A DNA stretch of 64,000 nt. Source: an uncultured Lentisphaerales bacterium. Lineage in GTDB: Bacteria; Verrucomicrobiota; Kiritimatiellia; RFP12; CAZZCT01. Shown in pieces: positions 2,388 through 44,690 of this stretch (its first letter is position 1; each line of letters opens with the position of its first letter). The stretch is taken from assembly GCA_964652365.1 (NCBI GenBank), contig CAZZCT010000001.1, positions 1,593-65,592 on the forward strand. The letters are read 5' to 3'. The notes under the pieces are model-generated. The model was given only the letters and a program-made list of their open reading frames with translations, was not told where the DNA came from and did no database searches. Both the position numbers and the translations under genes were made by a program.

Positions 2388-3719
2388 CTACACGCGCGCC
2401 AACACAACGCGCCGGCTCGGCGCGACGGCAGCCGCGCGCACCGCTTCGTCCATGCCCGCGAGTTCCGCTGTGGCCGCGGCCAGTGCGGCAGCGCTGCCGT
2501 GGGCCAGTAGGTCCCGGTAGAGGCCGAGCACGTACGGATTCCCCTCGCCCGCCGCCACCATCTGACGCGCTGCGGCCGTCTCGTCGTCCGGCAGTGTCAC
2601 CCCGCGCTGGCGCAGGGCGTACCGGTCCCACATGAGGAACATCCGCGCAGCTGTCGGGTTGCGCACGCGGGTGATGGCCAGGTTGTGCCGGGCTTCGGCC
2701 CGCCGCCAGACCTCGGCCGCCTGTTGGACCTGCGGCGCCTCGGCGACCGCCGCCAGGTCGAGGCCGGTCGCCCACTCCGCCGCCGTCACCGTGACCACCG
2801 GCCTGCCATCCACGGTCAGCGCATACGTGCCGGGCGTCAAGCCGGGCACCGCAAGCAGGTCGCGGTTCAGGTGGCGCCAACGCGACCGCAGCGCGGCAGG
2901 CGCGACGTCCCATGCGGCCGCGGGTGCAGCGCACGGCAGACCACCCGCGCGGACGGTCCACGCCAGCCGACCGCCTGCCGCGTGGACCGCGCTGATCTCA
3001 GCCCGCGTGCGAGTCACCTCGCCAGAGGCGCCGATCACCGTCTCGCCAACACCGGCCGGAACTCCCAGCGCCTCGAGGAGGCTCGCCGCCATCAGCAGGT
3101 GGCCAACAGGCTCCGGATGCACGCGGTCCTCGCGGATGAACGCGGTCAAAGGGGTCGCGGCGATCTCCTCTCGAAGTGCCGACAGGAATGCGGCATGCAG
3201 ATCGACGAACTGTGCGCCGGTCCGCGCCGCCAGTTCCGCTGCCGCCGCTCCCATTACGGCCAGGGCGTCGTCGTAGCCGCAGGGCTCCGTGCTGCCGGCA
3301 AGGCGTGTATACTGATCGTAGACTGTGGGACTGAGCAGGATCACGCGGCGCGTCCCGATCGCCTGTAATCGCGCCACCAGGGCCGCCATATTCGCAACAT
3401 GCTGGCTAATCGCCGCGGCGCGCGCCGCGGCATTGCCGGCCGCGGAGGCCTGGGCGCGGTCATAGAGACCACGGTTGCCGTCGTTCATGCCGAAGAGCAC
3501 GAAGGCCTGCGTGGGGTGGTGCGGCGCGATGTCGTAGTCGAATCGCTGGAGCGCGCCCCCGGCGGTGTCTCCGCTGATCCCGCAGTTGACCCAGCGCACG
3601 CGCCTCTCAGGATGTCGCAGCGTACAGACCGTCGCGAGGAGGGCATGGTAGTGCCCGGCGTGCGTGATGCTGTCTCCGACGAAGAGCACCGTCTCCTGAT
3701 CCTGGGGTTCGAAGGACAT
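2388..3719 (-). CDS. SGNH/GDSL-family hydrolase (carbohydrate-esterase-like) with C-terminal extension
   Basis: Block I VLFVGDSITHAG, block III FGMNDG, block V DRVHPEPVGH. ATG at 3719 (MSFEPQDQ) has GGGAGA 7 nt upstream. The track start at 3821 would add 34 Arg/Cys-rich residues. Confidence 0.8.
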   Translation of the reverse strand: MSFEPQDQETVLFVGDSITHAGHYHALLATVCTLRHPERRVRWVNCGISGDTAGGALQRFDYDIAPHHPTQAFVLFGMNDGNRGLYDRAQASAAGNAAARAAAISQHVANMAALVARLQAIGTRRVILLSPTVYDQYTRLAGSTEPCGYDDALAVMGAAAAELAARTGAQFVDLHAAFLSALREEIAATPLTAFIREDRVHPEPVGHLLMAASLLEALGVPAGVGETVIGASGEVTRTRAEISAVHAAGGRLAWTVRAGGLPCAAPAAAWDVAPAALRSRWRHLNRDLLAVPGLTPGTYALTVDGRPVVTVTAAEWATGLDLAAVAEAPQVQQAAEVWRRAEARHNLAITRVRNPTAARMFLMWDRYALRQRGVTLPDDETAAARQMVAAGEGNPYVLGLYRDLLAHGSAAALAAATAELAGMDEAVRAAAVAPSRRVVLARV

Positions 3720-3747
3720 GTGAAGATCTCCCGTGCAGGTTCGTGCC

Positions 3748-5317
3748 CTATGACCGCTCCCCACGCAGCCAGCATCCGGGGCCGGCCGGAATTCGGATCG
3801 TACCGTCAGGCTCACGGTCAACCGTCTGATCGGACATCACGTCAATCAGGCGACCGTAGCACGCGTCCGCGACGCACAGCACGGCGCCTTGGGCCGCGTC
3901 CCGGTTGATCACAAACCAGTGGTCCACCCCGCCATGCCGTCGACGGAAAACCACTGCGCCCGCGCAATTCCACGGCGGCGGAGGCTGGTCCTCCAGCGCC
4001 GCCGCGGTCAGCAACTCCTCGAAGGCGCGGTTGCCGGCCTGGAAGCAGCGGCTTGCGACCTCGTAAGCGAAGTAGCGGATCTGGCCCGCTCCGATCGCCT
4101 GGCGGATCGCCGCGGGGCGTCCGTCATCAAACCGCGCCGTGACCGTTCCGCGCGTCGGCTCGATTTCGCTGAACTGTCCGGCCACGGCCTGGCCGTTCAC
4201 GGATCGCGGCTCGAACTGGGCGTTGAAGTGGTTCAGCGGATAGGCGCCCACGAGCCGGTCGAACTCGCCGCCCGCACCCTCGGTCCGCACCCGGCCGCAC
4301 TCGTCGAATGTCGCAAACGGCGCGTCCGCCACCACGCGGCCGCCCTGCGTCGCGTAGTGCACAAGCGCGGACATCACCTCGCCTCGCACCACGGCCATGC
4401 CGGGGACGACAAGAACCGGGAAGTGCGCGACGCGTCCCGCCAGCAGTTCGTTATCCGTGACGTACTCGAACGGTATGTTGCGGGTCATCAGGGCGCGCGC
4501 CACGCCCAGCCGGTTACGCGAGTTCTCGTCGCCGTTCCAACCATCCAAGCGCCCCATCTCACGCTCGCCCGAGAACATCTCGGACTCCCAACTCGTCAGC
4601 ACGCCTACGACCGCGTCGGCCCGGGCATCGTACAGTTCGGCGCGATACTGCTGCGCGCGCCGGCAGAACGCCCCGAGCAGCGTGGCGCGCCGCGACGGCG
4701 CGCCTTGCAGGGTGGTCATGCCATACTCGCCGGCCTCGGGTCCGCTGAGCCGGCAGTTCCAGGCCCACAGGCCAATCCCCTGCAGACCGGCGCCAAGATA
4801 GCACATCATCATCTGCCAGCGTCCCGTACTGAGCCTGCAACCACCCCCGAAACAGCTCGTGAAAGCGCAGATCGCTCTCCAACTCCGGAGGGAAGCCGCC
4901 CGGTTCACCGACGCCCTCGTATGCCAGCAGGCAATTCCGGTGCTGGTACCGGTTGACGGCCGCCGCCGCGTATCCCGCGATCAACCGGTGGTACTCCTCC
5001 TCGATCAGGTGCGTGGCTCGCGGAACGTTGTGCGGCGGCAGCGCCATCCAGTCCGCGTACCCGACGCGCAGGTTCGGCATGAGCCGCAGTCCGGCTTCCT
5101 CGGCCAAGTCGAAGATCAGGTCCATGTGCGCAAAGTCGTAACGGTCCTCGCCCAGGTATTTCACGCCGCACCCGCCCTCGCCGCCGCCGAAGCGGATGCA
5201 GTCGAAACCGCAGCCCCGAATGTCGCCAAGGTAGCGGCGCAGGTCCTCGACCGTCGTGCGCTCGGTCACGAAGACGTAGGGGGCAAACGGGAAAGGTTTC
5301 AGTGCATCACATATCAT
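3748..5317 (-). pseudogene. GH42-like beta-galactosidase-type gene disrupted by a frame change and apparent internal deletion
   Basis: Two overlapping ORFs lie in different frames (5395..4559 and 4908..3748). The upstream frame has GFDCIRFG, RYDFAHMDLIFDLAEEAGLRLMPN, YEGVGEPGG and FRGWLQAQYGTL, as in GH42 N-terminal barrels. The downstream frame has GIGLWAWN..GPEAGEYGM plus a trimerisation/GATase-like domain (FPVLVVPGMAVV). Frames switch near 4812..4819, and the segment that normally carries the nucleophile is missing. Confidence 0.55.
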
Positions 5318-5331: not shown

Positions 5332-7107
5332 CTAGTTCACGTTGGTGGCGCTGACGGCGTACGGCGCACCAGGGAATGCCATCACGCCGCCGCACTCAAA
5401 CTCGGCCCGGCCATCGGCACCCATGCCGAAGCGCGCACCGCCGTTGGTGGCATAGACAATCTCGGCGAACCGGTAGTTCAGGACCTGCCGCCCCGCGAAG
5501 TCGGCCACCGTGATGACCGCCGTGTCGGTGCCGTGCGTGTCGGCCATCTCGGCGCAGACCGGGTCCTGCAGACGCGCGTCACGCATACGCCGAATCACGG
5601 TGGCCTGCCGGTCGTCGTAACGGATCCACGCGATCTCGCGGTCGCCGCGCGACACGGCGAGCAGCGTGTCGCGAGAATACTTTTGGTATGTCAGGCAGAC
5701 CGGGTTGCGCCCCACCTGGACGCAGCCGACATACCGGATGTCCCCGGGATCGGTAGCCGCCTCGGTCGCCAGCGAACCAACCGTGTAGATGCCGACCTGC
5801 CCGTCCTGCGAGGCCACGAAGGCGCGCGCCGCGTGGTCGCCGGTCATGCTGGCGAGCACGGCGGTCGGCTGCGGGTGGGACACGACCTTGACGACGCCAG
5901 GCTGCCACTCGGGATCGACCTCAAACGCGTAGGGCCATTGCCGTGGCGCCGAGCCCTGGTCGCGCGTCCTGCGGTAGTTGTCCTCCGTCGTAAAATACAT
6001 CTCGCGCACGCGCCGGAAGAGCGGTTGCAGATCTAGGAATGCCACCTTCTGCTCGTACTTCGCGGCCACGACGGCAAAGCCCGCGCGCGTTACATAGCCC
6101 GCGTTGCTTCCCTTGCTGAAGCTGTCGCGGTCGGCTTGACGGCTCATATCGAACGTGCTGAGCGCACCGGCATGACCGTCGGGACCGTTCACGCGGTTCT
6201 GGACTGTGTCGCCGACAGCGCAAACCGACGTCGGTATCTCGATGCCCGGCAGGTCCACGAAGCCCAGCAGCTTCATCCCGGTCAGGAGCGCCACATTGGC
6301 GAGCGCGGGCTGCGGCTCCTTCCACTCATGGGCGAAACCGGTGCCGCCGCCGGTCAGCGCGATTACCGCGACCTGCCCGGTCCGTGTGCGCGCATCGAAC
6401 ACCGTCACCAGCGCGAACTCGTTCTTGGGTGTGACGGCGATGGCGGTCGGAATCTTCCCGGACGGCAACTGCAGCGTGGGGTTGGTGCCGCGGGCCGTAC
6501 AGGTGCCGGCGGTGGCCAGGAACCCGGACGAGAAGACGATCACGCCGCAGTTGGCCCACACGCCCATGCCGCGCGCGACAGCCACGGGCGCGCCCAGGTC
6601 GCCCACGACCGGTTTCCAACCCGCCGACATCGGTTCGGGCCGGAAACCGCCGTGCCACGGCGGTTCGGGCTTCTCCGAGTAGCAGTTGTTGCTCATCTCC
6701 AGGATCGTCACGCGGTCAACACCCAGTGTGTCACCCGTGTCCGGCACATACAGAACCTGTCCCTGCGTGCTGCTGTAATCGCCGGCGGCACTCGTCCACG
6801 GCCCGCCAATCTGGTACGGCCGCCCACCGGGGTCCTGGCGGGTCGGAGCCAGCCAGATCTCCGGGAACGGCTTCTCGGCCAGGGCCGAAGGCGGATGACA
6901 GGCCGCGTAGTCCGGTCCCAGGCGGCGGTGCCAGCCCTCGCGGCTGAAGTCGGTCAGCTCACGCGCCGCCGCGGCGCGGTCAAACCTGATCGCCTGGACT
7001 GGCGGCGCGGCCTTGGCCGGCGGCAGACTCGGCCGCTCCGGCGCGGCGACAGCGGCCCCGCCGAACACGCTGCACAAGCCTGCTGCTGCGAGGATGATGC
7101 TCTTCAT
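5332..7107 (-). CDS. secreted hypothetical protein (possible beta-propeller), no recognised family
   Basis: ATG at 7107 gives signal-peptide-like MKSIILAAAGLCSVFGGAAVAAP with GAGGG upstream. It starts 11 nt after the stop of the upstream gene. The longer track ORF (to 7389) adds Arg-rich residues overlapping that gene. Confidence 0.7.
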   Translation of the reverse strand: MKSIILAAAGLCSVFGGAAVAAPERPSLPPAKAAPPVQAIRFDRAAAARELTDFSREGWHRRLGPDYAACHPPSALAEKPFPEIWLAPTRQDPGGRPYQIGGPWTSAAGDYSSTQGQVLYVPDTGDTLGVDRVTILEMSNNCYSEKPEPPWHGGFRPEPMSAGWKPVVGDLGAPVAVARGMGVWANCGVIVFSSGFLATAGTCTARGTNPTLQLPSGKIPTAIAVTPKNEFALVTVFDARTRTGQVAVIALTGGGTGFAHEWKEPQPALANVALLTGMKLLGFVDLPGIEIPTSVCAVGDTVQNRVNGPDGHAGALSTFDMSRQADRDSFSKGSNAGYVTRAGFAVVAAKYEQKVAFLDLQPLFRRVREMYFTTEDNYRRTRDQGSAPRQWPYAFEVDPEWQPGVVKVVSHPQPTAVLASMTGDHAARAFVASQDGQVGIYTVGSLATEAATDPGDIRYVGCVQVGRNPVCLTYQKYSRDTLLAVSRGDREIAWIRYDDRQATVIRRMRDARLQDPVCAEMADTHGTDTAVITVADFAGRQVLNYRFAEIVYATNGGARFGMGADGRAEFECGGVMAFPGAPYAVSATNVN

Positions 7108-7117: not shown

Positions 7118-10100
7118 TCATTCACCGCCAACGACCTCTGCGGTACCCCACTGATTCGGCGTCGCCAGGATCTCACCCGGGACATCGGCGACCAGGCCGG
7201 TAGCCTTGTTCGACCAGTAGACGCGCGCAGCGCGGTTGTCTCCCTTGGCGTCGGAATAGACCGCGCCCAGGTCGATCCGGTAGCGCCGGCCTGTCTGCGG
7301 CGTGAATCCGAGCGCTTCCAGCGGTACGGCGGCCTCGACCACGTACCCGCCGCCGCGGCGTACCAGGTTGATGCGCGCCGTTTCCACAATCTCGACGCGG
7401 TCCACGGTGGCGGACCGCCACGGACAGGTGAAGGTGACCGGCCGGCGCTCGCCGGGCGTCTTCCACCGGTAGAGCACGGCCACGGGCTTGCCGTCGTAAA
7501 CCGAGATCAGCAAACGCAGGTCGCCGACCGCAGCGCTGGTGCGGTTAGTGTCGGCCGCAGCGTCCGTGCCGAGTTGGAGGTCCACCGAGTCACCCGTCAC
7601 GAAGAGCTGGTTCACGTCCTTGCCGGCATTCACCATCGGGTTGTCGTCACCCGCCACATCATACCCCAGGTACAGGCTCGCGGCATCGAGGGCCAGCGCG
7701 GCGCGAACCGTGTAGGGGCCGGCCGACCACGTCACGCAGCCGTTGGTCGGGAATCCCCCCAGCCGACCATCGAACGCCGGCACAGCCTTAACACGCGGGA
7801 TGGTGAGCACTGCGGGAGCGGCCGCGCGGCGCGCGCGGCGCTGGGCCAGTCGTTCGGCCTCGGCCAGGGCCTCGGCGGTGAACGTGAGTTTGCCGCCACG
7901 GATGGCCCGCAGCGATTCGAAGCCGTCGAGCCGGATCAGGTTGTAGGCCGTGAACCCGGCGATCAGGTAATAGCGTCCGTCCCGCGCGCGAAAGAAATGG
8001 CCGCCGAACCACTCGCTGCCCATGGTCACGCGCCCGAGTGGCGCGCCAGGCCTGGCTTCGCGCGGCCAGGAGTCGCCCCCCAGCCGGCAGTCCTGGAAGA
8101 CGCTGGCCACCAGCAACCCGTCGAGGGTCATGAGGTAGAGGCGGCCCATGTTGGAGTGCATGGCGAAGACTGTTCCCAGCGCGGTGCCGGCCTTGCCGAT
8201 GCATCCCAGGGTGCCAATCAGCACATCATCGCGGTCAGGCAGCGGCGCCCAGTGCGAGCCGTGCACGCCGGACCAGTTGTCGGCATAGGTCCACAGCACG
8301 GCGCCGTCATCGCGAATGCACGTCAGCGGCGCGCCCACGACGACGCGCCCCTCGGCCGGCAGATAGAGGCAACCGCTCGCATCGGGTGTCGCCAGCACCT
8401 GCTGGCGCGCGAGGTCCCAGCGCGGCGCGCCGCCCGGGGACCAGCCCTGCAGGGGCGTCTTCGTCACCATGGCCTTGCGGCCGCCGTAGGCGCCATAGCT
8501 CTCGCCGGCGAACCCGTAGAGGTTGAAGTCGTCGTCGAGCCAGCAACTGCCGAAGTACCCCGCCACACCAACAGGTTGCTGAAGCGCGTTCCACCCGCTC
8601 CACTGCGAGCCGCTGGCCACCTCGTCGGCCTGCGCGCGGCCGTCGTCGTTCCGATCGGACCAGACGTAGGCGATCGTGGCATACCCGTGGGTTCCAGCCG
8701 GCGGCGGCGGCAGCGGGATGCCGGCCACGGACCCCAGGTCCTTGACGCAGACGTTGCCCATGGCGGCCACGCGCCGCAGCGCGTCGCCCGTGCGCAGGAA
8801 GAGCGCGCCCTCCTTGCTCATGACGTACTCGCGGCCGCGCGCCTTCAGCAACTGGCCGGCGACCGGGCCCAGGGCCGCGACGACCTGTGCGCGGTTCGCG
8901 CGGTAGTCCAACTTGAACTCGCAGCCGCTGCCGAACACGCGCGTCTTGTCGTCCGGGTCGGCATTGGCGCCGCCGCCGCCGTACTGCGTCGGCCCGATGA
9001 AATCGCGTTCGAGGCGCCCCTCCGGCGACCAGACGCTGATGCGCTTGGGCGCGGCATCGTCCTCGGCCACCCAGACCCGGCCACGCGGGTCCACGGCAAG
9101 CGCCGCCGGGTTCAGCAGTCCGTCGGGCTGCCAGGCGCCCGTGCGCGGCCGCCCGCCGGGCTTGCCGATGGCGTTGACGAACCGCCCGCCGCGGTCGTAC
9201 AGCCGCACCTGCTGCGCCTTCGGATCGGAGAGGAAGATGCGGCCGTTCGCGTCCACGGCCATGGCGTTGGCCCATTCGGGCAGGGCCTCGGTGATGACCG
9301 GCACAAGCCGTCCATCCACGAGCTTCGCGACCTGGCCGTCGGTCCAGACGTGCAGCACCCCGGCCGTGTCGAAGGCCAGACAGCCGGGTTTCGGTACACG
9401 CACGTCGCCGGTCTTCGCGGCGCTGTGCGCATCGAAGAACCGCACGACGCTCAGCCCGTTGGTGTCGGTCAGCGAAAGGGCCAGGCAGTTGCTGGTCACG
9501 GCAAAGCCGCCCACCCACGGTTGGGGTGTACCGTCAGCCGCCAGCGGGACCTTGAGCCGCGGCCCCGCAGACGTGTCGAACGGCGCGTAGCGGCCGCTCG
9601 CCAGATCGAGCCGGGCGAGGGCCGGCGGCACGTCCCACGAGCGCAGGAAGACGTAGGCATAGCGGTCGTCGGCAGCCAGCTTGTCGATCCCCGCGAGTCC
9701 GGCGTCGCCCCAGCGCTTGCGCCCGTCCAGATCGGTGGCGATGATGGCACAACCCGATTCGGCGCGCTCGGCCGCGAGCACCAGCGTGTTGCCGCCGCAC
9801 GCCACGGCCCGCGGCGCGCAGTGATCGCTCAGCCAGGCGCCGGTGCCGTCGGCGGTATCCCAGGGGGGCACGCCCGGCGTGCCGTAGGTGGCCTCGTAGA
9901 CTGGCTCGATCCCGCGGTGCACCAGGCCGCGGAAACGGTACTCGCCCGGTGGCGCGAGGCGGCCGCCTTCGTCGATCCCATCCCAGAAGTCGGTGCGGCG
10001 ACCGGCGTGGCGCGGCGCCATGCCGATCAGGTTGCGCACGCGCCGTCCGTCGCGGTCCTCGATCACCAGCGTGGCAAAACCCTCGAACGGCATCGTGTAG

Positions 10101-10996
10101 GCGAGCGCCACCGGTCCCTCGGTGGTCTGCAGCCGCGCGTCGGAGGCCCGCGCCTCCACCAGGAAATCCGGTTCAGGCAGCGAGAGGTTGCCTGTGGCGG
10201 CGAGGCGCACCTGTCCGTAGATGCGGTTCACCTCCCAGAACCAGCCCGCGTGGTTGGCGCCCGTTGCCACCAGGTCCATCATGTGGTTCACGGGCCAGCC
10301 CTTTCCGCTGTCCGGCCCCCAGACCAGGTCCAGCATGGCTTCGAAGGACTCGCCGGCGCGATAGGCGCGACCGCTGCGAACCACGGCTGGCCACGGGATG
10401 CGCAACTCCTGTACGTAGCCTGTACCGTCAGCCTTCGGCCGGAAGGCCTCGGTGATGCCGAGCGTGGCCAGGCCGTCGATGTACGGGATCGGCCGGTCGT
10501 CGTGCCAGGGGAACCAGCCGTCGAGGCTGCAGACCGCCGGCACGCCGCCGCGCGTATAGAACCAGCCGATGACCTTGCGCTCCTGATCGGTGCGGAAGTG
10601 GATCTGGAGCGAATCGGAGTGGAAGCATCGCCGCAAGTCGACGTCGAAGCGAGGGTCGTAGTTGTTCACCAGCGGTGTGGGGTCGCACCAGTCGACGCCG
10701 ACATACAGCGCCTCCGCGTCGTACATCATGGCGACTTCGGCACTGTAGCGACCCAATTGCGCGACGACGTCGCGGCAGACCACGATGCGGCCGGAGCGGT
10801 CCCATTCGGACAGATCGCCGTCGATGGTGACACGCGCCGGCGCCGGCACGGCGTCCAGCACGTGGTTGTCGGACTGAACGCCGCGCGCCCAGGCAGCCGC
10901 CAGAGCGACGGCCCACACCAACAGCAGAAGCCGTCCGGCGGCCGCAGGGCGCGACCGGCGCTTAGAAGAGCAGCGGCAGATGCTGTACCGGTTCAT
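7118..10996 (-). CDS. giant secreted protein: CBM9-like domain / FlgD-type Ig module / NHL-like propeller repeats / second CBM9-like domain
   Basis: Start at 10996 gives MNRYS..RLLLLVWAVALAAAWA (signal-like). Motifs: VTIDGDLSEWD..MMYDAEALYVGV (CBM9-like), GEYRFRGLVH (Ig module), DANGRIFLSD and DPRGRVWVAEDD (NHL-like), C-terminal ..LYLGYDV..RVYWSNKATGLVADVPGE..PNQWG. Paralogs at 30340..34254 and 24819..27290. Confidence 0.75.
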   Translation of the reverse strand: MNRYSICRCSSKRRSRPAAAGRLLLLVWAVALAAAWARGVQSDNHVLDAVPAPARVTIDGDLSEWDRSGRIVVCRDVVAQLGRYSAEVAMMYDAEALYVGVDWCDPTPLVNNYDPRFDVDLRRCFHSDSLQIHFRTDQERKVIGWFYTRGGVPAVCSLDGWFPWHDDRPIPYIDGLATLGITEAFRPKADGTGYVQELRIPWPAVVRSGRAYRAGESFEAMLDLVWGPDSGKGWPVNHMMDLVATGANHAGWFWEVNRIYGQVRLAATGNLSLPEPDFLVEARASDARLQTTEGPVALAYTMPFEGFATLVIEDRDGRRVRNLIGMAPRHAGRRTDFWDGIDEGGRLAPPGEYRFRGLVHRGIEPVYEATYGTPGVPPWDTADGTGAWLSDHCAPRAVACGGNTLVLAAERAESGCAIIATDLDGRKRWGDAGLAGIDKLAADDRYAYVFLRSWDVPPALARLDLASGRYAPFDTSAGPRLKVPLAADGTPQPWVGGFAVTSNCLALSLTDTNGLSVVRFFDAHSAAKTGDVRVPKPGCLAFDTAGVLHVWTDGQVAKLVDGRLVPVITEALPEWANAMAVDANGRIFLSDPKAQQVRLYDRGGRFVNAIGKPGGRPRTGAWQPDGLLNPAALAVDPRGRVWVAEDDAAPKRISVWSPEGRLERDFIGPTQYGGGGANADPDDKTRVFGSGCEFKLDYRANRAQVVAALGPVAGQLLKARGREYVMSKEGALFLRTGDALRRVAAMGNVCVKDLGSVAGIPLPPPPAGTHGYATIAYVWSDRNDDGRAQADEVASGSQWSGWNALQQPVGVAGYFGSCWLDDDFNLYGFAGESYGAYGGRKAMVTKTPLQGWSPGGAPRWDLARQQVLATPDASGCLYLPAEGRVVVGAPLTCIRDDGAVLWTYADNWSGVHGSHWAPLPDRDDVLIGTLGCIGKAGTALGTVFAMHSNMGRLYLMTLDGLLVASVFQDCRLGGDSWPREARPGAPLGRVTMGSEWFGGHFFRARDGRYYLIAGFTAYNLIRLDGFESLRAIRGGKLTFTAEALAEAERLAQRRARRAAAPAVLTIPRVKAVPAFDGRLGGFPTNGCVTWSAGPYTVRAALALDAASLYLGYDVAGDDNPMVNAGKDVNQLFVTGDSVDLQLGTDAAADTNRTSAAVGDLRLLISVYDGKPVAVLYRWKTPGERRPVTFTCPWRSATVDRVEIVETARINLVRRGGGYVVEAAVPLEALGFTPQTGRRYRIDLGAVYSDAKGDNRAARVYWSNKATGLVADVPGEILATPNQWGTAEVVGGE

Positions 10997-22199: not shown

Positions 22200-24832
22200 C
22201 TCGCCCCACCGGGCTGCGGCACCGGCTCGTCCGAGAACCAGCGGCTCTCGATGCCGCGGGCGTCGAGGGCGGTCACGTGGTACACATGCGCAGCCGCTCC
22301 GCGCGCGTCTTCATATGAGCAAACCGTCAGCGTCTCGCGCGCACGGCCAACAACGTACGGCGAGTTCAGCAGGGTCCACGGCCCGCCCTCCTGCTCCGAG
22401 CGGTAAATGCGGTAGGTGGCGGCGCCGGCTGCCGGTTCCCACGTCACCCGCCGCCCCGGCCGCGCGGCCGCCACCGTGACGCCGGCCGGCAACGGCGGCG
22501 CCACCAACGGCTGGTACCGCTGCCGCGCGGCGTTCAGGTTCACCGCGGCATGGAAGTGGTTGAAGAGCTCGGACCAGTTGACGTGGCGGCCGACCCGGTG
22601 ACGCACAAAGTAGGCGGCCTCGGTCAGCCCCGGCGGCACGGGATCGCCGGCCACGCGGAAGAGCCCGACGTAGGGCGCAGCGTCCCAGGCCTCCCAACGG
22701 TGGTCGTGCGTCTGCGTCCGGAAGAAGTTGGCGCGCGGCCAGGAGGCGATGTCCGTCGCCCCGGGAGCGCGGTGGCAGAGGTCGGCGCAGACGTCGATGG
22801 CGTCCGTGTAGCGTCCATAGACAGCCGGGTGCAGCCAGAGGTCCTCTCCGGTATGCAGCTCGGCCGTGCGCAACCAGAAGTCGCTGATCGCCTCATACAG
22901 CAGGTCGGACTGGCCGGCCCCGCGCAAGGCGCTCGTGTAAGCGCGCTGACCACGGCCGTAGATGGCCAGCACGCCGTTCTGGCGCGTCACATCGCGATAG
23001 AACTGTGAAAGGCCGGGATCGTCCATGGCCCGGCCGCTGTGGAGCCCGAAGAGGACCGAACCGGCCTGCATGTTGAAGGCCGTCGAAAAGCAGTTCAGAT
23101 AGGGCATGCCATACCCGTCGACGCTGCCGTTGGTCAGACGCGAGGCGCGCGCGACGGCAAGACAGATGCGGTCAAGACGCTCGGACGGCGCCAGGGTGGC
23201 GGCAAACGCGGGCATGCTGCCGGCCGCGAACCCGATGTGATAGGGGTCCATGCGCCCGTAGTCGATCTTCCATCCGGACGGACGTCGCGGCGTCTCGCCG
23301 GGCCCGACGCGCGCCCAGCCGGGCAGCCAGTGGTCCACGGAAGTCTCGTCGCTGCGGTCCCCTGCCCGCCCGGCCGCAACGCCGGCGAGGATCCGCCGCC
23401 ACTCGCCCTCGTTACGCTCGATGTAGGCAATGGCGGCCGTCTGCTGCCAGCCGCGCCCCCAGTTCGTGATCTTCCGGAACGAGGGTGCCAGCGCGGCCAG
23501 TTCCAAGGTCAGGTCGACCGGCCCGATGCCCGGCTCGTCCACAATGGCCGTCAGCGTCTGCATGTGCGGCAGACTCGCCAGCCAGAGGGCGTCGACCGTC
23601 ACGGCGCGGCCGAAGACATAGCGCGTCTCGCACCAGAAGGCCCGGATGGACCCGCTGTCTCCATCCTCGTGGCGCGTGAAGGTCCGCGGACCGGCAAAAG
23701 CCACGGTGCCGTCGGCGCCCAGAACGATGGCGCTGGCGCCGGATTGCACGTAGGGGATCGCGAGCAGGCTCACACCCGACGCGGCGTGGACCAGTGCCTG
23801 GTTCTGGTGGCCGCTCGCGCGGCGCAGCAGGCGGCGCAGCCCGGCCGGCACGTCGACTACGCGCAAGCCGGCCGCGTCGCGACCGAGCACCAGACGGCCG
23901 TGAAGCAGGTCGCCGCCCGTGGTGCCGACCACCTGCAGGCTGTCAGGCTCCTCCGGAAGAAAGCGTGCCGTCTGGATCAGCAGGCCGCCGCGACGCGGCA
24001 GGCGGTAGGTGTACTCGGCGGCGTCGGGCACACCGGGAGGACCGATGCGCACCACCCACTTGGCGAAGAGCGGGCCCGTGCCGTACCGCAGCGCGCGCAC
24101 TTCCATTGAGGCCGGTTCGGCGTAGGAAACCGGCGTCTCTCGCATCGTTCGCAGCTCGACGTCCTGGCGGCGCAGCGTCACACGCGGCCCGAGCACGCCC
24201 GACGGAATCGCCACGGCACCGGCCGCCGACTCGAGCGCCACGATGCCGCCAGCGCGTGGACCGTCGGCGAGGAAGGTCACGGCCAGGTCGGCGCCGCGCA
24301 ACGTAACACGACCATCGCGCACCTCCATGGGCACGGCGGGCATGGCCGGTGCACCATGGGTGCGTGCGTACAGCAGGAACTGACGGCGTTGCCACGGCGC
24401 CAGGTCGGCTTCGAAGTACAGGTGCAGGCGGCTCACGGCGCCGGTCGCGTCGCGCCGGATATCGTCGGCCTGCCACGGCAGGGGTCGCTCGCAGCGGACA
24501 TCCTCGGCGGCATACAGCGCGAGGGCGTCGGGCGCCGCACACTCGCCAGCATGGAGGAACAGCGGCGCCCGCACGAGTTCGTTGCTCCGGCCGACGCCGA
24601 CACGCTCCTCGACCGTCAAAAGACGCAGCAGTCCGTTCGTCCGCGGCGCGCCCGCGCGCAACGCCATCGTCATCGGCGCCGGCGGTGCGCCGAAGACGTC
24701 GTCATCGGCGGCCGACGCGCCGACCGCGGCGCCGGCCAGCAGGATTGCGGCGGCCGCGCACAAGCCGGAAAGCCCGCGCGGGTACCGGCGGCAGACGCCG
24801 CCCGCGGCGCGCGACGGATCATCGGGTGACAT
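22181..24832 (-). CDS. secreted hypothetical protein with C-terminal Fn3-like module
   Basis: ATG at 24832 gives MSPDD..GLSGLCAAAAILLAGAAVGASA (signal-like). C-terminal VTWEPAAGAATYRIYRSEQEGGPWTLL is Fn3-like. No catalytic family recognised. Overlaps its neighbours by 14 and 19 nt. Confidence 0.65.
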   Translation of the reverse strand: MSPDDPSRAAGGVCRRYPRGLSGLCAAAAILLAGAAVGASAADDDVFGAPPAPMTMALRAGAPRTNGLLRLLTVEERVGVGRSNELVRAPLFLHAGECAAPDALALYAAEDVRCERPLPWQADDIRRDATGAVSRLHLYFEADLAPWQRRQFLLYARTHGAPAMPAVPMEVRDGRVTLRGADLAVTFLADGPRAGGIVALESAAGAVAIPSGVLGPRVTLRRQDVELRTMRETPVSYAEPASMEVRALRYGTGPLFAKWVVRIGPPGVPDAAEYTYRLPRRGGLLIQTARFLPEEPDSLQVVGTTGGDLLHGRLVLGRDAAGLRVVDVPAGLRRLLRRASGHQNQALVHAASGVSLLAIPYVQSGASAIVLGADGTVAFAGPRTFTRHEDGDSGSIRAFWCETRYVFGRAVTVDALWLASLPHMQTLTAIVDEPGIGPVDLTLELAALAPSFRKITNWGRGWQQTAAIAYIERNEGEWRRILAGVAAGRAGDRSDETSVDHWLPGWARVGPGETPRRPSGWKIDYGRMDPYHIGFAAGSMPAFAATLAPSERLDRICLAVARASRLTNGSVDGYGMPYLNCFSTAFNMQAGSVLFGLHSGRAMDDPGLSQFYRDVTRQNGVLAIYGRGQRAYTSALRGAGQSDLLYEAISDFWLRTAELHTGEDLWLHPAVYGRYTDAIDVCADLCHRAPGATDIASWPRANFFRTQTHDHRWEAWDAAPYVGLFRVAGDPVPPGLTEAAYFVRHRVGRHVNWSELFNHFHAAVNLNAARQRYQPLVAPPLPAGVTVAAARPGRRVTWEPAAGAATYRIYRSEQEGGPWTLLNSPYVVGRARETLTVCSYEDARGAAAHVYHVTALDARGIESRWFSDEPVPQPGGARWSEGP

Positions 24833-27290
24833 CAGCGGACTCCTTGTGGGGAACCTCGATCGGGGGTGCAAAGCGGAAAAGTCCCCAGAGGTTCGGTTGC
24901 ACACCCGCCTCACTTGGGAGATCGGACAGGAGCGCGGTCTGGCGGTTCGCCCAGTAAGTGCGTCGCGCGGTGGCGCTGCCCGTCTGATCGCTCCAGATGC
25001 GTCCGAGGTCGCCGCGCGTCTCGCCGAGCTTCGCGGGCGCAAGGTGAATGTCGGCCAGCGGAACCGCGGCCTCGACAGCCACATCGCCGCCCGAGCGGCG
25101 CATCACCGCCACACGTGCGTTCGCGAGCACGGTCACTCGGTCGCACCACTGCGTACGCCAGGGGGAGCTGAACGCGATACGTTCGCCCGCGAATCCGGGA
25201 ACGAGGTAGTCGTAGAGCACGCACACCGGCGCGCCGCCGAGCATGGCGATGCTGAGGCGGATGTCGCCCGGCCCGGCCTTCAGGCGGCGCGGATCAAGGC
25301 CAACGCCGGTCTGGAGCATGACGTCGACCACGTCGCCGCTGGCGAAGAGCCGCAGCGGATTGTCGCCCGCGTTCGCGAAGGGCGCACGGTCATCGCGCGC
25401 GCGGTGCAGGATGTAGAGATGCGTGCGGTCGTACGCGAGCGCGCAGCCTTCCACGCGCTCCCCGCCCGGCCAGTCGCGGTCGTCGCCGTCGATGGCGATG
25501 GCTCCGGCGACCACGTTCGTCACCAGGTAGGTCCTGGGCGGCTGGGTGCGGGCCGCCGCGGCCTGGCGGCGCTGGGTTGCAGCCACAACCTGCCTGGCGG
25601 TCACCTCCAGCGGTGCCCCCGCCAGCCGACGGATGCGGTCGAGCCCCGTGAGTTCCACCACCGAGCAGTGGGTCTTGCCGACGACGTAGAAGTAGCGATC
25701 ACGCCCGTCGGCGTCGCGCACACGCTGCAGGATGCCGCCGAAGTGTTCATCGAAGAGGCTCGTCTCCGCCAGCACCTCCGACGCCGGCGGCTCCGGGAAA
25801 CGCCACAGCAGTCCGACGCGCTGGTCGCGAAAGACGCGGTCGATGCCCCACAGTTTGCGGGCCGCGCCATCGACCTCGACGATCGAATCGCCAGCTTCGC
25901 CGTATGCGGCTAGCCACAGGCGGTCGCCGGCGCGCGCGATCGAGCGTGGCAGCTCGTGGTCCGCCAGCCAGCCGCCCGTGCGGTCGGATGTGTGCCACGG
26001 CATGCCGGCGACCGGCGTCGGGTAGTACGAGAAGCGGTAGTCGACCCGCAGGCCGGGATTGTACAGGCCCTGCCAGCGGTAGCTGCCGGGCTGCGTGACA
26101 AGGTCGCCCGCGACGTCCTCCAGGTTCCACCAGGCCGTGTTCGTCCCGGCCGGAAAACGTACGCCCGCGACGGGGTTCGCGACCACGCGTCCATCCGCAT
26201 CGCGGATCTGGAGCGTCACCGTGGCGGGCTCGGGCAACGCGAAGCGGATCGGCGCCAGTTCCGCGCCCGCGGGATCACCCTCCGCCACGCGGCCGTCGGC
26301 CCCATCGTTCGCCACCGGTGAAAGTACCACGATCTCACCGAGGCCGGGCGGCATCACGCCGCCCGTGCAGCGCAGGCGGAGCGCGGACGTCGTGACCGAC
26401 CGCGCCAGCGTATGGATGCGCCCACGGCGGAAGGCCGACTCGGCCGGCGTCGGCAGCGGCAGTGTGCGCCAGTCACGAGACGCCTGAGCCGCGAAGCGCG
26501 GGTCGCCAGTCCCGGTATAGACCTCTGCCACGAAATCGCCGAGGCCGCGGTCGTGACTCCCGAAGAACAGTGCAAATCCGGCCAGACACTGCGGCACGTC
26601 CCAGACCAGCATCATCCACTCTGGCGCTTCCGGCGACAGTGGCGCAGCACGTGGGGCGGTCGCGAAGTTCTGCCGCGCGTCGACGAATCCATCGGTGAGG
26701 GTCTCGGGACGGTTCACCCACGGTCGCGGCTGGAAGCCCTCGCTGGGCGTATCCGCGCTGCTGACGCTCACCGCCGCGCGCGGTGCGATGTTGGCATGGC
26801 GTCCCGGCTGCACGCGCAGAAACGGCAGCACGGCCCGAAAGCCGGGCCGGCCGCCGCCGGCATCCTCGGTGGCAGCGGCCGCCACGGCCACGCGCAACAC
26901 ACCATCGGGCTGGGGCGCGGGCAGCGTCACAACCGCGAGGCTGGCCCGTGCGTCCGCGGGCGCGGATGGCAACCAGGCATCACCAACCGCCGACGCACCA
27001 TAGCAGAACACGGTCAGCCCCTCCGCGGAGGGCGGCGGCAGGGGCAGCGCGAACAGGGTCTCAGTCGCGTTTGAGGTGGCGGGCGCGACCGCGTCGAGCA
27101 CTTCGAGCGCGCCATCGGACGTGGTCCGCGGTTCCACGTTCACGACCAAGGCCGGCGCCGCCGCGCCGTTCCCGGATGCCAGCAGCGGTAGTACCGCGAG
27201 AGCCAACGCCACGGCGCGCCGCAGCGACCAGCCCGGCCGAAGCGACGAGCAATGGAACGCGGGAGCGGTGATAGGTGCTGCAAACCACAT
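24819..27290 (-). CDS. secreted protein: discoidin-like region / FlgD-type Ig module / C-terminal CBM9-like domain (short paralog of 7118..10996)
   Basis: RRAVALALAVLPLLASG is signal-like; other motifs are LRLRCTGG..GLGEIVVL, VTLQIRDADGRVV..GSYRWQGLYN, and AIDGDDRDWPG..LAYDRTHLYIL..RTYWANRQTALLSDLPSE..PNLWG. The start is uncertain: ATG 27290 is chosen, while GTG 27320 would lie inside repeat 27295..27327. Confidence 0.7.
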   Translation of the reverse strand: MWFAAPITAPAFHCSSLRPGWSLRRAVALALAVLPLLASGNGAAAPALVVNVEPRTTSDGALEVLDAVAPATSNATETLFALPLPPPSAEGLTVFCYGASAVGDAWLPSAPADARASLAVVTLPAPQPDGVLRVAVAAAATEDAGGGRPGFRAVLPFLRVQPGRHANIAPRAAVSVSSADTPSEGFQPRPWVNRPETLTDGFVDARQNFATAPRAAPLSPEAPEWMMLVWDVPQCLAGFALFFGSHDRGLGDFVAEVYTGTGDPRFAAQASRDWRTLPLPTPAESAFRRGRIHTLARSVTTSALRLRCTGGVMPPGLGEIVVLSPVANDGADGRVAEGDPAGAELAPIRFALPEPATVTLQIRDADGRVVANPVAGVRFPAGTNTAWWNLEDVAGDLVTQPGSYRWQGLYNPGLRVDYRFSYYPTPVAGMPWHTSDRTGGWLADHELPRSIARAGDRLWLAAYGEAGDSIVEVDGAARKLWGIDRVFRDQRVGLLWRFPEPPASEVLAETSLFDEHFGGILQRVRDADGRDRYFYVVGKTHCSVVELTGLDRIRRLAGAPLEVTARQVVAATQRRQAAAARTQPPRTYLVTNVVAGAIAIDGDDRDWPGGERVEGCALAYDRTHLYILHRARDDRAPFANAGDNPLRLFASGDVVDVMLQTGVGLDPRRLKAGPGDIRLSIAMLGGAPVCVLYDYLVPGFAGERIAFSSPWRTQWCDRVTVLANARVAVMRRSGGDVAVEAAVPLADIHLAPAKLGETRGDLGRIWSDQTGSATARRTYWANRQTALLSDLPSEAGVQPNLWGLFRFAPPIEVPHKESADVTR

Positions 27291-30339: not shown

Positions 30340-33300
30340 TTACTTGAGGGCCAATTCACCCCAGTTGCGGGGCACCATCATCAACTCCTCGACCTCGTCG
30401 CTGACCAGGCCCGTGCTCAGGTTGGCCCAGTACGAGCGCAGCACCGTGTCGTTGCCAGCCTTGTTGCCGTGGGTCGCACCGACATCGCCGCGCAAGGCCA
30501 GACCGGCCGCAGGCGTCGTACCAAGCAGACTCCACGGAATGGCGGCTTCGACCACGTACCCCTTCTTGTCGTCGGCCAACTTGACCTGCAGCGTAACTGT
30601 CTGGGGGAAGGTCACACTCTCCATCCAGACGCCATCGCGGTAGACGCCCGAACTGAACTTCATCGGCTTCTTGTCGGATTCCTGCGCGACGACGCGACGG
30701 TACAGCACCGCCGTTGGCTTGCCCTGGAACGGACCGATCGACAGCCGCAGATCGCCCAACTCCGCCTTGTCGCGGTTGGCGTCGGCCTTCGCATTTGTGG
30801 CGAGTTGCAGGTCGACCGTGTCGCCGCGCGCATAGAGGAACTCGGGCGCATCCGCCCCGTTGACCCAAGGCGTATCGTCCATCACATGCCAGGCCACATA
30901 CAGGTTCGCCTGGTCCCACGCGAACGCGCTGCGGACCTTGGCATTGTCCTGACGCGAGAAGTCCTTGATGGCCTTGGCGCCGAAGTCCTTTTCAATGTCA
31001 CCCGAGAAGGCTGGCTTCGCCTGGGCAATCTCCAGCTTGCGCCCGCCCTCCTGCGCCGTCAGGTAGCGCTGGCGGTACGCCTTCGCGGTCTCGACGTCCG
31101 CCGCGCTCAGCGCGAGCTTGCCGCCGGCGAGCGCCTGCGCCTTCTCGAGCCCCTGCACGTGCATGTTCCAGAAGCTGGTGTGACCGCCCTGAATCGAGAA
31201 CACACCGTCCTTGCCCAGGGTGACCGAACCGCCAAAGGCCTCTTCGCCGGCGCCGGGCGGGCAGCGCGTACAGTCGGTGCCGGGCACGGCCTTGTCCGGG
31301 AACTCAACCTTCATCGGGTCGCCTTCCCAGAACTTCGTCAGGTAGTACCCCTGCTCAGTGAGCGCGTGCCACTCCCCCTTGTTGGTCGGAATCACCCAGA
31401 TGTTGCCGATGGGCGGGGGCAGCGTGACCGACCCGCAGATGTCGTAGGCGCCACGGATCATGCCCACCTCGGGCGGGCAGGCGCGGTGCGAGCCGTGCAC
31501 GCCGGTGAAGTTGCTGGGGTAACTCCACATCTTCTTGCCGCTGGCGATCTCGTAGCAGTCGAGCGTCATGTGATCCTCGCCGTAACCGCCGTTCCAGAGC
31601 ACGAAGCGGTTGTCGGCCGACCCCGCGTTCCTCTGGGCGCCCATGCCGCCGCGGTACCCGGCATCGGACGGAGCCGGCAGCAACTTGGCCTGACCCAGGT
31701 CGTAAAGCGGCGCGCCACACTTCGTCCAGCCGGTCACCTTGATCTGCTTCATACCGCCGTAGCAGGTGAGGTCGGGCGTGATGGCCATGTACCAGCCCTG
31801 GATCCAACCGCCCAAGTCGTTCGGGTAGCTCGTGACCTCCTCGGGCTGCTCGCGGACATCATCATTCGCATCCGCCCACACCTCCACGAGCTTCTGCTTG
31901 TCCTTCTCGGTCTGTTCGAGCCGCGTGCGCAGTTTCCACTCGCCGTCGCGGATCTTCTCGAAGATCCGGATGGCGCCGCCCGCGTGCAGGAAGGCGGGCG
32001 TCACGGCTACGTACAGGCGCCCGCCCGGACCGAAGCCAAAGCGTGAGGCCATCATGCCATTGCGGTCCAAGGTGCCGAGCACCGTGGCCTGGCCCGTCTT
32101 CTGGTCAATGCGCCATTCGCAGCCCTGGCCGACCATCAGGCACGGGTCCACCGGGTTGATCGCTGCTCCCAGTGCGCCGTAGGTCGACGATCCGAAGAAC
32201 TCCTTCGCAAAGGCCCCGGTCTTGGCGTTCCAGACACTGACGCGTCGCGGCAGGCCGTCCTGCTCGGTCACCCAGAGCTGCCCCTGCGAGTCAATCGCCA
32301 GCGCGCTCACATGGAGCATGCCCTCCGGCTGCCAGAGACCGGCTAGACGCCGTCCCGCCTTGACGCCAATCGTCCGGGTGAGCTTGCCGTCCTTTCCGAG
32401 CACCTGCACGTAGTGGTGGTCGCCCCGGATGCCGCAGTAGATCTCGCCGTCCGGATCGACCGCGATTGAACTGACCCAGTCCTTGCCTTCCAGCGGCACC
32501 GCACCGACCTCGCGGATGGCGCCGCTCTGCGGGTCGACCGCCAGCACCTTCCGGGCCTCGGACATGGCATACAGCATGCCATCGGGGCCGAGTTCGATGT
32601 CGCCGACCTTGGGGACGGCGAGTTTACGCAGTGTCTTGCCGCTCTTGGCGTCCACGACCGCCACCAGCCCGCGACCGCCGAATCCCATGAAGACCATGCC
32701 ACGACCGGCCGTCAGGCTGTCGGGCCGCTCGGGCACCTCCGCGTCGCCGGCGAAGACCTGGGCCATCGACAGGTCCGTGGCGTCCGTGCCCTCCCACACG
32801 CTGTAACCGCCGGTCTTGGCGTCCACGCGGTAGAGGCTGCGGGGAGCATACTGTCCGTGTTCGTTCCAGACATACACGGTGCCGGCCTCGGCGGCCACCA
32901 AGCTGGCCGTGGCAATGCCGCCGCGAATCTGCTTCCAGAGAATCTTGCCCTCGGGCGTGCAGGCCAGCAGCGGCTTGGCGCCTTCGCCGCCGGCCCAGCC
33001 GACGTAGACGCGTTCGCCGTCCGCCGCCACCGCGCAGGGATCGCCATGGTCGGCGCCCCACACATTGCCCCAGGGCGTCTCGGAGCTGCTGCCGGCCCAG
33101 CCGCGCAACGCCAGTGTCACACCGGGGTGCCAGATGCCCGCCCATGTGAAATCGCCGGCTTCCAGCGGCTGGCCGGGCACGTTCACAGAGGTGGTGCCCA
33201 GCCCGTCCCAGCGGACTTCGTGACTGCCCTTCGGGTAGAAGGCGCTGGTCAGCAACTGGCGGGCCACGGTGCCGTCGGCGCGGAAGACGTTGAGCGACAC

Positions 33301-34254: not shown

Positions 34255-34294
34255 CGCATGCTCCCGTTTGTACCGGTGACGCAGCCACTGCGCA

Positions 34295-34325
34295 CCAGTC
34301 ACTATACATTGCGTGTATATCATGT
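34295..34325 (-). promoter_or_regulatory. candidate operator/promoter: + strand CCAGTCACTATACATTGCGTGTATATCATG (inverted repeat TATACA-N5-TGTATA)
   Basis: AT-rich island 41-71 nt upstream of the 34254 ATG. Matches 44616..44646 as CCAGTYACTATACA-N6-GTATAWCAT. In gene sense it contains a TATAGT -10-like hexamer. Confidence 0.4.
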
Positions 34326-34354
34326 TGGGCAGGTGTGATGCAAACAGATAAGTC

Positions 34355-34387
34355 AACCTTGGCGCGCTTGGCGTCTTGGCGGTTCAA
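34355..34387 (+). repeat. triple-TTGGCG repeat unit c1 (AACC-TTGGCG-CGC-TTGGCG-TC-TTGGCG-GTTCAA)
   Basis: Read directly. Near-identical direct copy at 35041..35077. Confidence 0.8.
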
Positions 34388-34521: not shown

Positions 34522-34533
34522 AGGAGAGGGACG

Positions 34534-36339: not shown

Positions 36340-36381
36340 ATCGATCATCCTTCGCAACGGCGGGCATCAACCCGCAACCCA

Positions 36382-44614: not shown

Positions 44615-44615
44615 A

Positions 44616-44646
44616 CCAGTTACTATACACGCAACGTATAACATTC
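44616..44646 (-). promoter_or_regulatory. candidate autoregulatory operator/promoter: + strand CCAGTTACTATACACGCAACGTATAACATT
   Basis: Shares CCAGTYACTATACA-N6-GTATAWCAT with 34295..34325. In gene sense, TATAGT is followed by 7 nt and then the ATG. Confidence 0.4.
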
Positions 44647-44690
44647 CGGCCGCGGATGCAAGGGCGGTTTTCACCCCTCAAACTGCGAGA

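Follow-up and report, generated by a model that had tools for sequence, protein, structure and literature searches.

A widespread family of probable secreted tandem beta-propeller proteins with CBM9-like modules, represented by three genes of an uncultured Lentisphaerales bacterium, and its possible role in glycan recognition

Three genes of one family in a Lentisphaerales locus

Do very large proteins assembled from carbohydrate-binding-type modules and beta-propellers recognize glycans, cleave them, or serve some purpose unrelated to glycans? The question is raised by three genes, here called A, B and C, in a 64,000-nucleotide stretch of DNA from an uncultured Lentisphaerales bacterium (GenBank assembly GCA_964652365.1, contig CAZZCT010000001.1, positions 1,593 to 65,592 of the forward strand; this whole stretch is referred to below as the window). 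We find that the three genes belong to a real and very large family, in which known domain types are combined into an architecture that is new and conserved. No function is assigned to it, and a role in glycan recognition is the one that we tentatively favor. The genes are:

7118..10996, minus strand: protein A, 1292 amino acids (aa); full-length family member of the N-terminal-CBM9 type, with an identical database protein (P0001)
30340..34254, minus strand: protein B, 1304 aa; paralogue of A over its full length, from a larger clade distinct from that of A
24819..27290, minus strand: protein C, 823 aa; member of the subfamily with a discoidin-like N-terminus, from which about 575 aa, nearly all of both propellers, have been lost

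All three are real coding open reading frames (ORFs) and lie in a co-directional minus-strand cluster that spans from about 44.7 kb down to 2.4 kb. The GC content of the window is about 68%, and the frames of A, B and C are those with the highest third-position GC (0.81-0.86); the ORF of C is intact, with a third-position GC of 0.81. In the database gene calls A has 1292 aa, B has 1304 aa and C has 833 aa, the last extending 10 aa beyond the start used in the first-pass annotation of this DNA (823 aa). A and B align from end to end with 28% identity (E 2e-113), and C is related to A in two places, each with 35% identity: the segment of the Ig (immunoglobulin-like) domain and first blade (E 6e-19) and the final ~330 aa (E 7e-44). 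The motifs by which the family was originally recognized are all present in the translations: GEYRFRGLVH, DANGRIFLSD, DPRGRVWVAEDD, GDFTWAGIWH, DPDGEIYCGIRGD, DSQGQLWVTEQD and GSYRWQGLYN.

Domain architecture and predicted fold

Proteins A and B share a single domain order, consisting of a signal peptide, a CBM9-like domain, a FlgD-type Ig domain, tandem beta-propellers with NHL/PQQ_2-type blades, a linker helix and a second CBM9-like domain. That the two proteins have the same order had been proposed from the sequence alone, and full-length identity, Pfam, profile comparison with the Protein Data Bank (PDB) and an AlphaFold2 (AF2) model now agree on it. The segments of A are:

10883..10996, minus strand: A residues 1-38, probable Sec signal peptide with a basic n-region and the core LLLLVWAVALAAAWA, from the translation read by eye
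10187..10864, minus strand: A ~45-270, N-terminal CBM9-like beta-sandwich (Pfam CBM9_1; profile match to 1i82)
9884..10111, minus strand: A ~296-371, FlgD-type Ig sandwich (FlgD_ig below cut-off; family profile; AF2 strands at model positions 22-97)
7880..9862, minus strand: A ~379-1039, tandem beta-propellers of ~13-14 four-stranded blades (AF2 and family profile)
7121..7810, minus strand: A ~1063-1292, C-terminal CBM9-like domain (Pfam CBM9_1, best stretch 1195-1287; conservation)

Searches with hidden Markov models (HMMs) place CBM9_1 (PF06452) above its Pfam gathering score of 23.4 in both A (37.1 bits) and B (42.3 bits), with two stretches in each; C has no Pfam CBM9_1 match. In single sequences FlgD_ig (PF13860) scores 22.3 bits in A and 16.1 in C, both under the cut-off of 27, and NHL (PF01436) scores 15.8 bits in A by itself, under the cut-off of 20, with homologues carrying precomputed PF01436 matches. 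The CBM9 assignment is confirmed for A and B, and those of FlgD_ig and NHL, which stay below cut-off in single sequences, are probable in view of the family profile. Scores for other propeller models are low: SGL reaches 16.2 bits in A (cut-off 26.3), Reg_prop is seen in B only at 15.7 (cut-off 20.4), and PQQ_2 gives 20-32 bits in four distant members, of which only P0358 is above the cut-off of 27.6. These HMM scores do not support a place among the PQQ-dependent dehydrogenases or the lactonases of the SGL/SMP-30 type, and A and B have no Y_Y_Y, kinase or receiver domain and only a sub-cut-off Reg_prop match, so that they do not conform to the Bacteroides hybrid two-component systems (HTCS). 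An NCBIfam scan returned nothing further for A, B or C.

The family profile was built from 57 sequences, down to 28% identity, and searched against PDB sequences, with the best 60 matches viewed. It matches NHL structures (E 1e-17 to 3e-40) and FlgD Ig structures (E 7e-7 to 1e-6), and its positions 39-219, which correspond to the N-terminal domain, match the CBM9 of T. maritima Xyn10A (1i82, E 7e-7). The blades of propeller 1 are of the NHL/PQQ_2 type; propeller 2 has no sequence match to any solved structure in this profile search. An AF2 model of A residues 275-1292, built on the 57-sequence alignment, has a mean predicted local distance difference test (pLDDT) of 92.7 and a predicted TM-score (pTM) of 0.90, and shows a seven-strand Ig sandwich (296-371), the ~13-14 blades, an 18-residue helix and a C-terminal beta-sandwich.

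When this multidomain model was compared with the PDB by Foldseek (the best 50 of 1,612 matches were viewed), the matches were to generic tandem or NHL propellers (Aip1, EML1, 2ymu, UTP/WDR proteins, teneurin, and the Thin NHL domain with TMt 0.68), together with a weak match to the BT4663 sensor (E 1e-10, TM-scores 0.17-0.24). We considered whether the full model represents a specific enzyme fold and rejected this, because generic WD/NHL tandem propellers dominate and no specific enzyme is among the matches listed. No glycoside hydrolase (GH) or polysaccharide lyase (PL) propeller is among the Foldseek best 50 of 1,612 or the PDB HMM top 60, and GH74, GH145, PL11, PL22, PL24/25 and PL42 gave no Pfam, NCBIfam, PDB-sequence or Foldseek match among the matches listed. 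Two findings that would have undone the initial description of the family, namely an HMM or fold match to a characterized CAZy family or to a clear non-glycan protein, or a breakdown of the common domain order, were not obtained among the matches listed and in the alignments.

Size, distribution and variants of the family

A word-indexed search gave 95 homologues of A, mostly of 1,260-1,340 aa, and at least 400 of B. With a profile that spans the Ig, propeller and C-terminal region, 3,444 representatives clustered at 50% identity are retrieved at E<=1e-30, the top 150 all with E<1e-217. A scan of species-representative genomes found 164 relatives, from which 77 loci were kept as the related-loci set used below; they come from Planctomycetota (including the cultured Rhodopirellula sallentina, Aporhodopirellula rubra and A. 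aestuarii), Verrucomicrobiota (Opitutaceae, Chthoniobacter, Limisphaerales), Lentisphaerota and Armatimonadota, and there are several gene copies per genome, up to about ten.

At least three N-terminal variants exist: a CBM9-like domain (A and B), a discoidin-like region (the C type, ~1,375-1,485 aa), and none (~1,190-1,270 aa). The source databases give generic names such as hypothetical protein, PQQ-binding-like beta-propeller repeat protein, YvrE, BamB and NHL repeat-containing protein, and we found no literature on the double-propeller CBM9/Ig architecture; the proteins had been called uncharacterized, and this description fits.

Protein C as a deletion derivative

The first-pass annotation regarded C as a shorter relative of A and B. 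Judging from its alignments, C is instead an internally deleted copy of the ~1,375-aa subfamily and not a naturally short relative. Obvious fragments aside, all homologues of C with more than 45% identity are ~1,370-1,380 aa long, and in a pairwise comparison with P0097 residues 1-487 of C correspond to P0097 46-480 and residues 483-808 to P0097 1055-1379. Because the two halves align collinearly to separated segments of a protein of full length, we conclude that C lost ~575 aa in frame, amounting to nearly the whole double propeller. The junction is located as follows:

25830..25847, minus strand: C residues 482-487 (GIDRVF), the junction left by the deletion; in the orthologues of full length it falls between two IDR[VI] motifs

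The AF2 model of C has a pLDDT of 73 overall and below 50 around the junction. Other parts of the original description of C are supported. The discoidin-like region has no Pfam match; Foldseek aligns the N-terminal module of the model with F5/8-type-C/CBM32 folds (3nng, TMt 0.68; 4zxe/4zy9, TMt 0.73-0.75) and with neuropilin b1b2 (E 5e-7, for a model with the pLDDT of 73 just given), and the C-terminal domain with the CBM9 structures 7nwo (with glucose) and 7nwn (E 2e-6, TMt 0.61-0.64). This C-terminal domain is the same as that of A.

The intact ORF, its coding-like third-position GC and the retention of the conserved C-terminal residues would fit a functional, naturally short protein composed of discoidin, Ig and CBM9-like domains. 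We consider this quite unlikely, given the uniform length of the close homologues, the collinear halves that break at a repeated IDR[VI] motif, and the low pLDDT around the junction. As a remnant from which the propellers were deleted, C is probably unable to perform the core function of the family.

Conserved residues

Conservation was scored on the same 57-sequence alignment, with Met not scored. Two short elements within the propellers are:

8621..8656, minus strand: A 781-792, EF-hand-like 12-residue loop DRNDDGRAQADE, of the form D-x-N-x-D-G-x5-E
8252..8263, minus strand: A 912-915, H-G-S-H in a short helix of propeller 2, within W-x-G-[VL]-H-[GA]-[SG]-H

The first of these, probably a structural Ca2+ site, has invariant D781 and E792, and conservation reaches 89% at N783 and D785. 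In the second, H912-x-x-H915 is 82-84% conserved, and the C-type subfamily has the equivalent WPGLHAGH. Propeller 1 contributes the conserved residues D391, H392, E413, K427, R616, D636, E645, R652 and Y672, which, to judge from strand order, should lie in D-A and B-C loops, on the top face of blades 1 and 6; besides the HxxH motif, propeller 2 contributes D959, D969, R971 and E995. The conserved residues of A recur in the C-type subfamily. E645 and R652 sit within the ordinary NHL repeat consensus (D..G.hWVaE...KRIsVW); because of this, and because D781 and E792 belong to the EF-hand-like loop, several of the invariant residues are probably structural.

In the C-terminal CBM9-like domain N1123, R1161, R1258, D1271 and E1275 are invariant throughout the family, together with Y1260/W1261. 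These invariant polar residues are common to all the paralogues, C included, which fits a common ligand rather than a chemistry specific to each paralogue. The residues listed as conserved in this domain are confined to D, N, R, Y, W and S/T, and no His reaches 80% (Met was not scored). The possibility that the CBM9-like domains are heme-binding domains of the DOMON type was considered and set aside, since, on conservation, no conserved His/Met ligand pair is seen.

Fusions, tandem paralogues and protein S

The most informative variant of the architecture is P0355 (1693 aa), in which a Hanks-type Ser/Thr kinase and a transmembrane segment are followed by the Ig/propeller module as an ectodomain (profile match 655-1690). 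This kinase fusion is present in two independent assemblies (L084:6001-11082 and L085:4886-9967), and it is followed by the gene for a ~580-aa NHL propeller protein that we call S; beside it are a gene for an extracytoplasmic function (ECF)-type sigma factor, a second kinase and RHS/YD-repeat giants. A fusion scan of 11 long members found CBM9, FlgD_ig, NHL, PQQ_2, SGL and the one kinase only. Apart from this kinase, no known catalytic domain is fused to the family module in the 11 long members scanned, and a Rosetta-stone link to a catalytic domain was therefore discarded.

The gene for S follows members that lack the N-terminal CBM9 in about 20 loci (for example L063:13224-15023, L083:7047-8774 and L084:11108-12886), and in L060 (9505-14628) and L079 (3480-8972) S is fused in frame to the preceding family member. 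It is absent from the window. When ORFs were clustered de novo, a family gene most often had another family gene as its neighbor, and about 48 of the 77 loci contain two to five tandem paralogues on the same strand. Together the tandem paralogues and the S fusion suggest that the proteins form complexes.

Conserved partners of the family genes

The family genes had been described as embedded in glycoside-hydrolase operons, and within the window this is correct. They sit among genes for a GH29, two GH2, a GH10, a clan-A GH and a GH42M-like protein, the GH neighbors being those that the first-pass annotation had listed; the apparent lack of signal peptides in several of these proteins was judged by eye from the N-termini. 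Further neighbors are two GDSL proteins, two PA14 giants and one GntR/LacI-type regulator. As a conserved property of the family the association does not stand. When 20 cluster proteins of the window were compared by BLAST with the ORFs of the 77 related loci, homologues of the window GH29, GH2, GH10 and clan-A GH were present in 0-3 of them, and a fixed GH partnership was rejected. The GH context is local rather than defining for the family.

The conserved partners are the tandem paralogues, an SGNH/GDSL esterase, GntR/LacI-type regulators and protein S. Two of these types have representatives near A, B and C:

35095..36357, minus strand: SGNH/GDSL esterase of 420 aa, upstream of B (Pfam Lipase_GDSL_2, E 7e-18)
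43508..44677, minus strand: regulator with a GntR helix-turn-helix and a periplasmic-binding-protein (Peripla_BP) fold (LacI-like), at the head of the co-directional cluster (Pfam)

The 420-aa esterase has an N-terminal hydrophobic segment with LAGC, a possible lipobox, and homologues of it occur in 12 of the 77 loci. Of the 18 clustered GDSL genes, 16 lie next to a family gene and share its strand, usually just upstream of it, and this is so in three phyla. A Pfam census of the 123 nearest non-family neighbors contains 15 GDSL and 2 SASA proteins, 12 GntR + Peripla_BP_3 regulators and 3 AraC regulators; the regulator, at 12/123, is thus one of the two commonest types. GH families are only scattered in the census (GH2, GH3, GH10, GH29, GH38, GH116 and GH13-like), along with sulfatase genes. 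A recurrent module has the order GDSL esterase, member without the N-terminal CBM9, protein S, and ~1,300-aa member of the B clade. Additional neighbors include a sulfatase, GH13-like, GH116 and GH32 proteins, a beta-helix protein and a second GDSL-PKD protein, and loci of the Rhodopirellula type consist of a sulfatase, a GDSL esterase and two family genes, with no recognized depolymerase.

What the proteins may do

The role that we find most plausible for A and B, and that we put forward tentatively, is that of a secreted platform for glycan recognition (capture, presentation or sensing) that works together with an SGNH esterase on esterified glycans. The protein would be exported by its Sec signal peptide. 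A variable N-terminal carbohydrate-binding module (CBM), which is CBM9-like in A and B and CBM32/discoidin-like in the C subfamily, and the invariant C-terminal CBM9-like module would hold the polysaccharide, and the tandem propeller core, in a protein that is probably stabilized by Ca2+, would offer a conserved ligand-binding surface and would not itself be catalytic. Sets of paralogues, often with the NHL partner S, may act together, and the SGNH esterase from the gene immediately upstream may cooperate with them, with the operons placed under GntR/LacI-type sugar regulators. The outcome would be the joint capture, and possibly the presentation or sensing, of esterified (probably O-acetylated) glycans for the exo-acting enzymes of the cell.

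Four points make this proposal the best supported: the fusion to a kinase, structural relatives that are exclusively of the binding type, the evidence that hetero-complexes form, and the invariant C-terminal CBM. Among the matches listed, the propellers resemble only proteins that bind ligands or act as scaffolds (the PknD sensor, TRIM-NHL proteins, tandem WD-like propellers and, weakly, BT4663), and the use of the module as a kinase ectodomain favors ligand binding. The CBM9-like and CBM32-like modules and the carbohydrate-related neighborhoods support the link to glycans. Of the original suggestion of a glycan-binding or glycan-cleaving component, then, the connection with glycans is supported; cleavage has no direct support, and the one informative fusion found is to a receptor kinase.

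Several observations nonetheless count against a platform that only binds, and some of these, with further ones, would suit a different possibility, in which the tandem-propeller core is a new glycan-cleaving enzyme (a lyase or hydrolase) that the CBMs target to its substrate, the esterase deacetylates the glycan first, and the paralogues cut different linkages. Glycan binding is suggested by the type of module, the kinase fusion is one of 400 proteins examined, and a match to a catalytic propeller could be hidden beyond the Foldseek best 50 of 1,612. CBMs on either side of a large conserved core are the usual layout of an enzyme. The conserved polar residues (D391, H392, E413, K427, R616, Y672, H912/H915, D969, R971 and E995) form a pattern like that of an active site, with D, E, H, R and Y in the predicted top-face loops of blades 1 and 6, the HxxH motif, and the D969/R971/E995 group. 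In three phyla the gene for the esterase lies close beside a family gene and reads in the same direction, the loci of the Rhodopirellula type have no recognized depolymerase, there are loci that combine a regulator, esterase, sulfatase and family genes with no known depolymerase, and the paralogues have expanded in polysaccharide-degrading lineages. Enzymes with such a core are also known: PL11, PL22, PL24/25, PL42, GH74 and GH145 have beta-propeller catalytic domains, and in B. subtilis the PL11 lyases YesW and YesX are encoded with the SGNH acetylesterases YesT and YesY. We nevertheless regard an enzymatic core, though a serious rival, as on the doubtful side, since there is no sequence or fold match to these families among the matches listed, several invariant residues are probably structural, the kinase-ectodomain member points to binding, and none of the 11 long members scanned has a catalytic domain fused to it. 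The bolder version, that the core is a new polysaccharide-cleaving class acting after SGNH de-esterification, and that thousands of genomes without Sus-type systems from Planctomycetota, Verrucomicrobiota, Lentisphaerota and Armatimonadota have it as their main endo-acting depolymerase, seems to us rather unlikely.

A role that has nothing to do with glycans is less likely again. The proteins could be structural, adhesive or signaling components of the envelope or extracellular space, for instance a soluble co-receptor for Ser/Thr kinase/ECF pathways, with the CBM9-like domains being of the DOMON type; the CBM9_1/DOMON fold binds heme and other ligands in other proteins, the kinase fusion adjoins an ECF sigma factor and a second kinase, Ser/Thr kinase genes are near family genes in 5 of the 77 loci, and some contexts, such as L001, are without a carbohydrate-active enzyme (CAZyme). 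The kinase loci may be due to chance, because Planctomycetes encode many kinases. The commonest neighbors are carbohydrate esterases and sugar-type regulators, the N-terminal module found in place of CBM9 is CBM32/discoidin-like, the structures that the domains match are genuine CBM9s, of which one was solved with glucose, and the C-terminal domain lacks a His at 80% conservation (Met not being scored). With these set against it, we judge a non-glycan role very unlikely.

Bacteria of the Planctomycetes-Verrucomicrobia-Chlamydiae (PVC) group and Armatimonadota are major degraders of polysaccharides in soil, freshwater, marine systems and bioreactors. To our knowledge they are without SusC/D, the machinery by which Bacteroidota capture glycans. 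If the proteins are glycan-recognition platforms, the family may represent the glycan-capture or sensing layer that is missing from the picture of these phyla. As enzymes, they would constitute a new CAZy family, and predictions of carbon turnover that are based on the CAZymes of these lineages would change. In either case the family is clearly delimited as a subject for study, its structural model is confident, and the residues to mutate are plain.

Other genes of the locus

Two further genes of the co-directional cluster are:

2388..3821, minus strand: SGNH/GDSL protein of 477 aa, the second of its type, located where the cluster ends distally (Pfam; no obvious signal peptide, by eye)
5332..7059, minus strand: protein of ~575 aa, directly downstream of A and a conserved neighbor of A-clade orthologues

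The ~575-aa protein finds no match in Pfam, NCBIfam or the PDB. Its identity to L005:2842-4860 is 62%, and orthologues adjoin family genes in L001 (8233-9990), L005, L006 (8126-9904), L007, L012 and L029; the gene is upstream of the A-clade gene in L001 and L005 and downstream of it in the window. We asked whether it is a homologue of S and rejected this on an hhalign probability of 0.2%. The 663-aa protein encoded upstream of A was likewise dismissed as a conserved partner, as it has no similarity to the product of the gene upstream of P0008. This protein (10962-12953) and another of 967 aa (22181-25084), both on the minus strand, have no Pfam or NCBIfam match, and homologues of them are absent from the related loci. 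In L001, the 6.6 kb downstream of the gene for P0008 (L001:13895-20554) contain no called genes and no ORF of at least 200 aa, and may be masked or of low complexity.

The ~840 bp between the GDSL gene and B (34254-35095) contain a single ORF (34426-35040), whose third-position GC is low (0.64). This makes the stretch probably non-coding, and a promoter of its own for B is possible. Beyond the GDSL gene are the two PA14 giants, tandem paralogues on the minus strand (36462-40154 and 39994-43437; 1230 and 1147 aa) that are 61% identical; each has PA14 and FN3-like (Pur_ac_phosph_N/PhoD_N) matches and ~800 aa without a family match, and they have no homologues in the 77 related loci.

Just past the regulator, on the minus strand, 45697-49784 encode a pair consisting of a DUF3999-like and a DUF2339 predicted membrane protein, which is unrelated to the family. 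Positions 50662-58565 and 60569-63067 contain a lipid/acyl-CoA block with genes for acyl-CoA dehydrogenase, electron transfer flavoprotein (ETF) alpha/beta, trans-2-enoyl-CoA reductase and beta-ketoacyl synthases (KAS II/III), and after it a GH94-type phosphorylase on the plus strand.

Relationship to known systems

Five groups of characterized proteins invite comparison with the family. Galactose oxidase combines CBM32, a propeller and an Ig-like domain, and the C-type subfamily similarly opens with a discoidin/CBM32 domain followed by propellers. The model of C gives low-scoring Foldseek matches to it (TM 0.13-0.21) that are driven by the discoidin domain; there is no evident Cu-ligand or Tyr-Cys motif, and C itself is without propellers. 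The propeller CAZymes (PL11 YesW/YesX, PL22, PL24/PL25, PL42, GH74 and GH145), as they are generally known, resemble the family in having a propeller, Ca2+-type loops and flanking CBMs, and also in the association with SGNH acetylesterases seen in the B. subtilis yes operon. They differ in that no HMM or fold match to them is found among the results listed and in that catalytic residues cannot be assigned in the family.

The heparin-sensing HTCS BT4663 (4a2l/4a2m) shares with the family its tandem propellers, an Ig-like domain and a polysaccharide-utilization context, in addition to the weak Foldseek match and the faint Reg_prop match in B. The TM-scores are low, however, and the family is without Y_Y_Y, a membrane anchor, a histidine kinase and a response regulator.

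The family also resembles the CBM9 modules of Xyn10A (CBM9-2, 1i82) and Caldicellulosiruptor kristjanssonii (7nwo), in that the terminal domains of A and B match CBM9_1 above the cut-off, the N-terminal region of the profile matches 1i82, and the C-terminal model of C superposes on 7nwo (TMt 0.64). With a Foldseek identity of only 13-14%, this likeness is one of fold and profile. Known CBM9 modules are appended to a recognized catalytic domain (GH10), whereas here two copies flank a double propeller. Finally, the ectodomain of M. tuberculosis PknD (1rwi) and the NHL domains of TRIM71, TRIM2 and Thin are single six-bladed propellers of ~270 aa, unlike the ~13-14 tandem blades with Ig and CBM domains of the family, most of whose members would be soluble secreted proteins without a kinase; yet the blades of propeller 1 match the NHL profiles, and one member of the family, like the propeller of PknD, is the ectodomain of a Hanks kinase.

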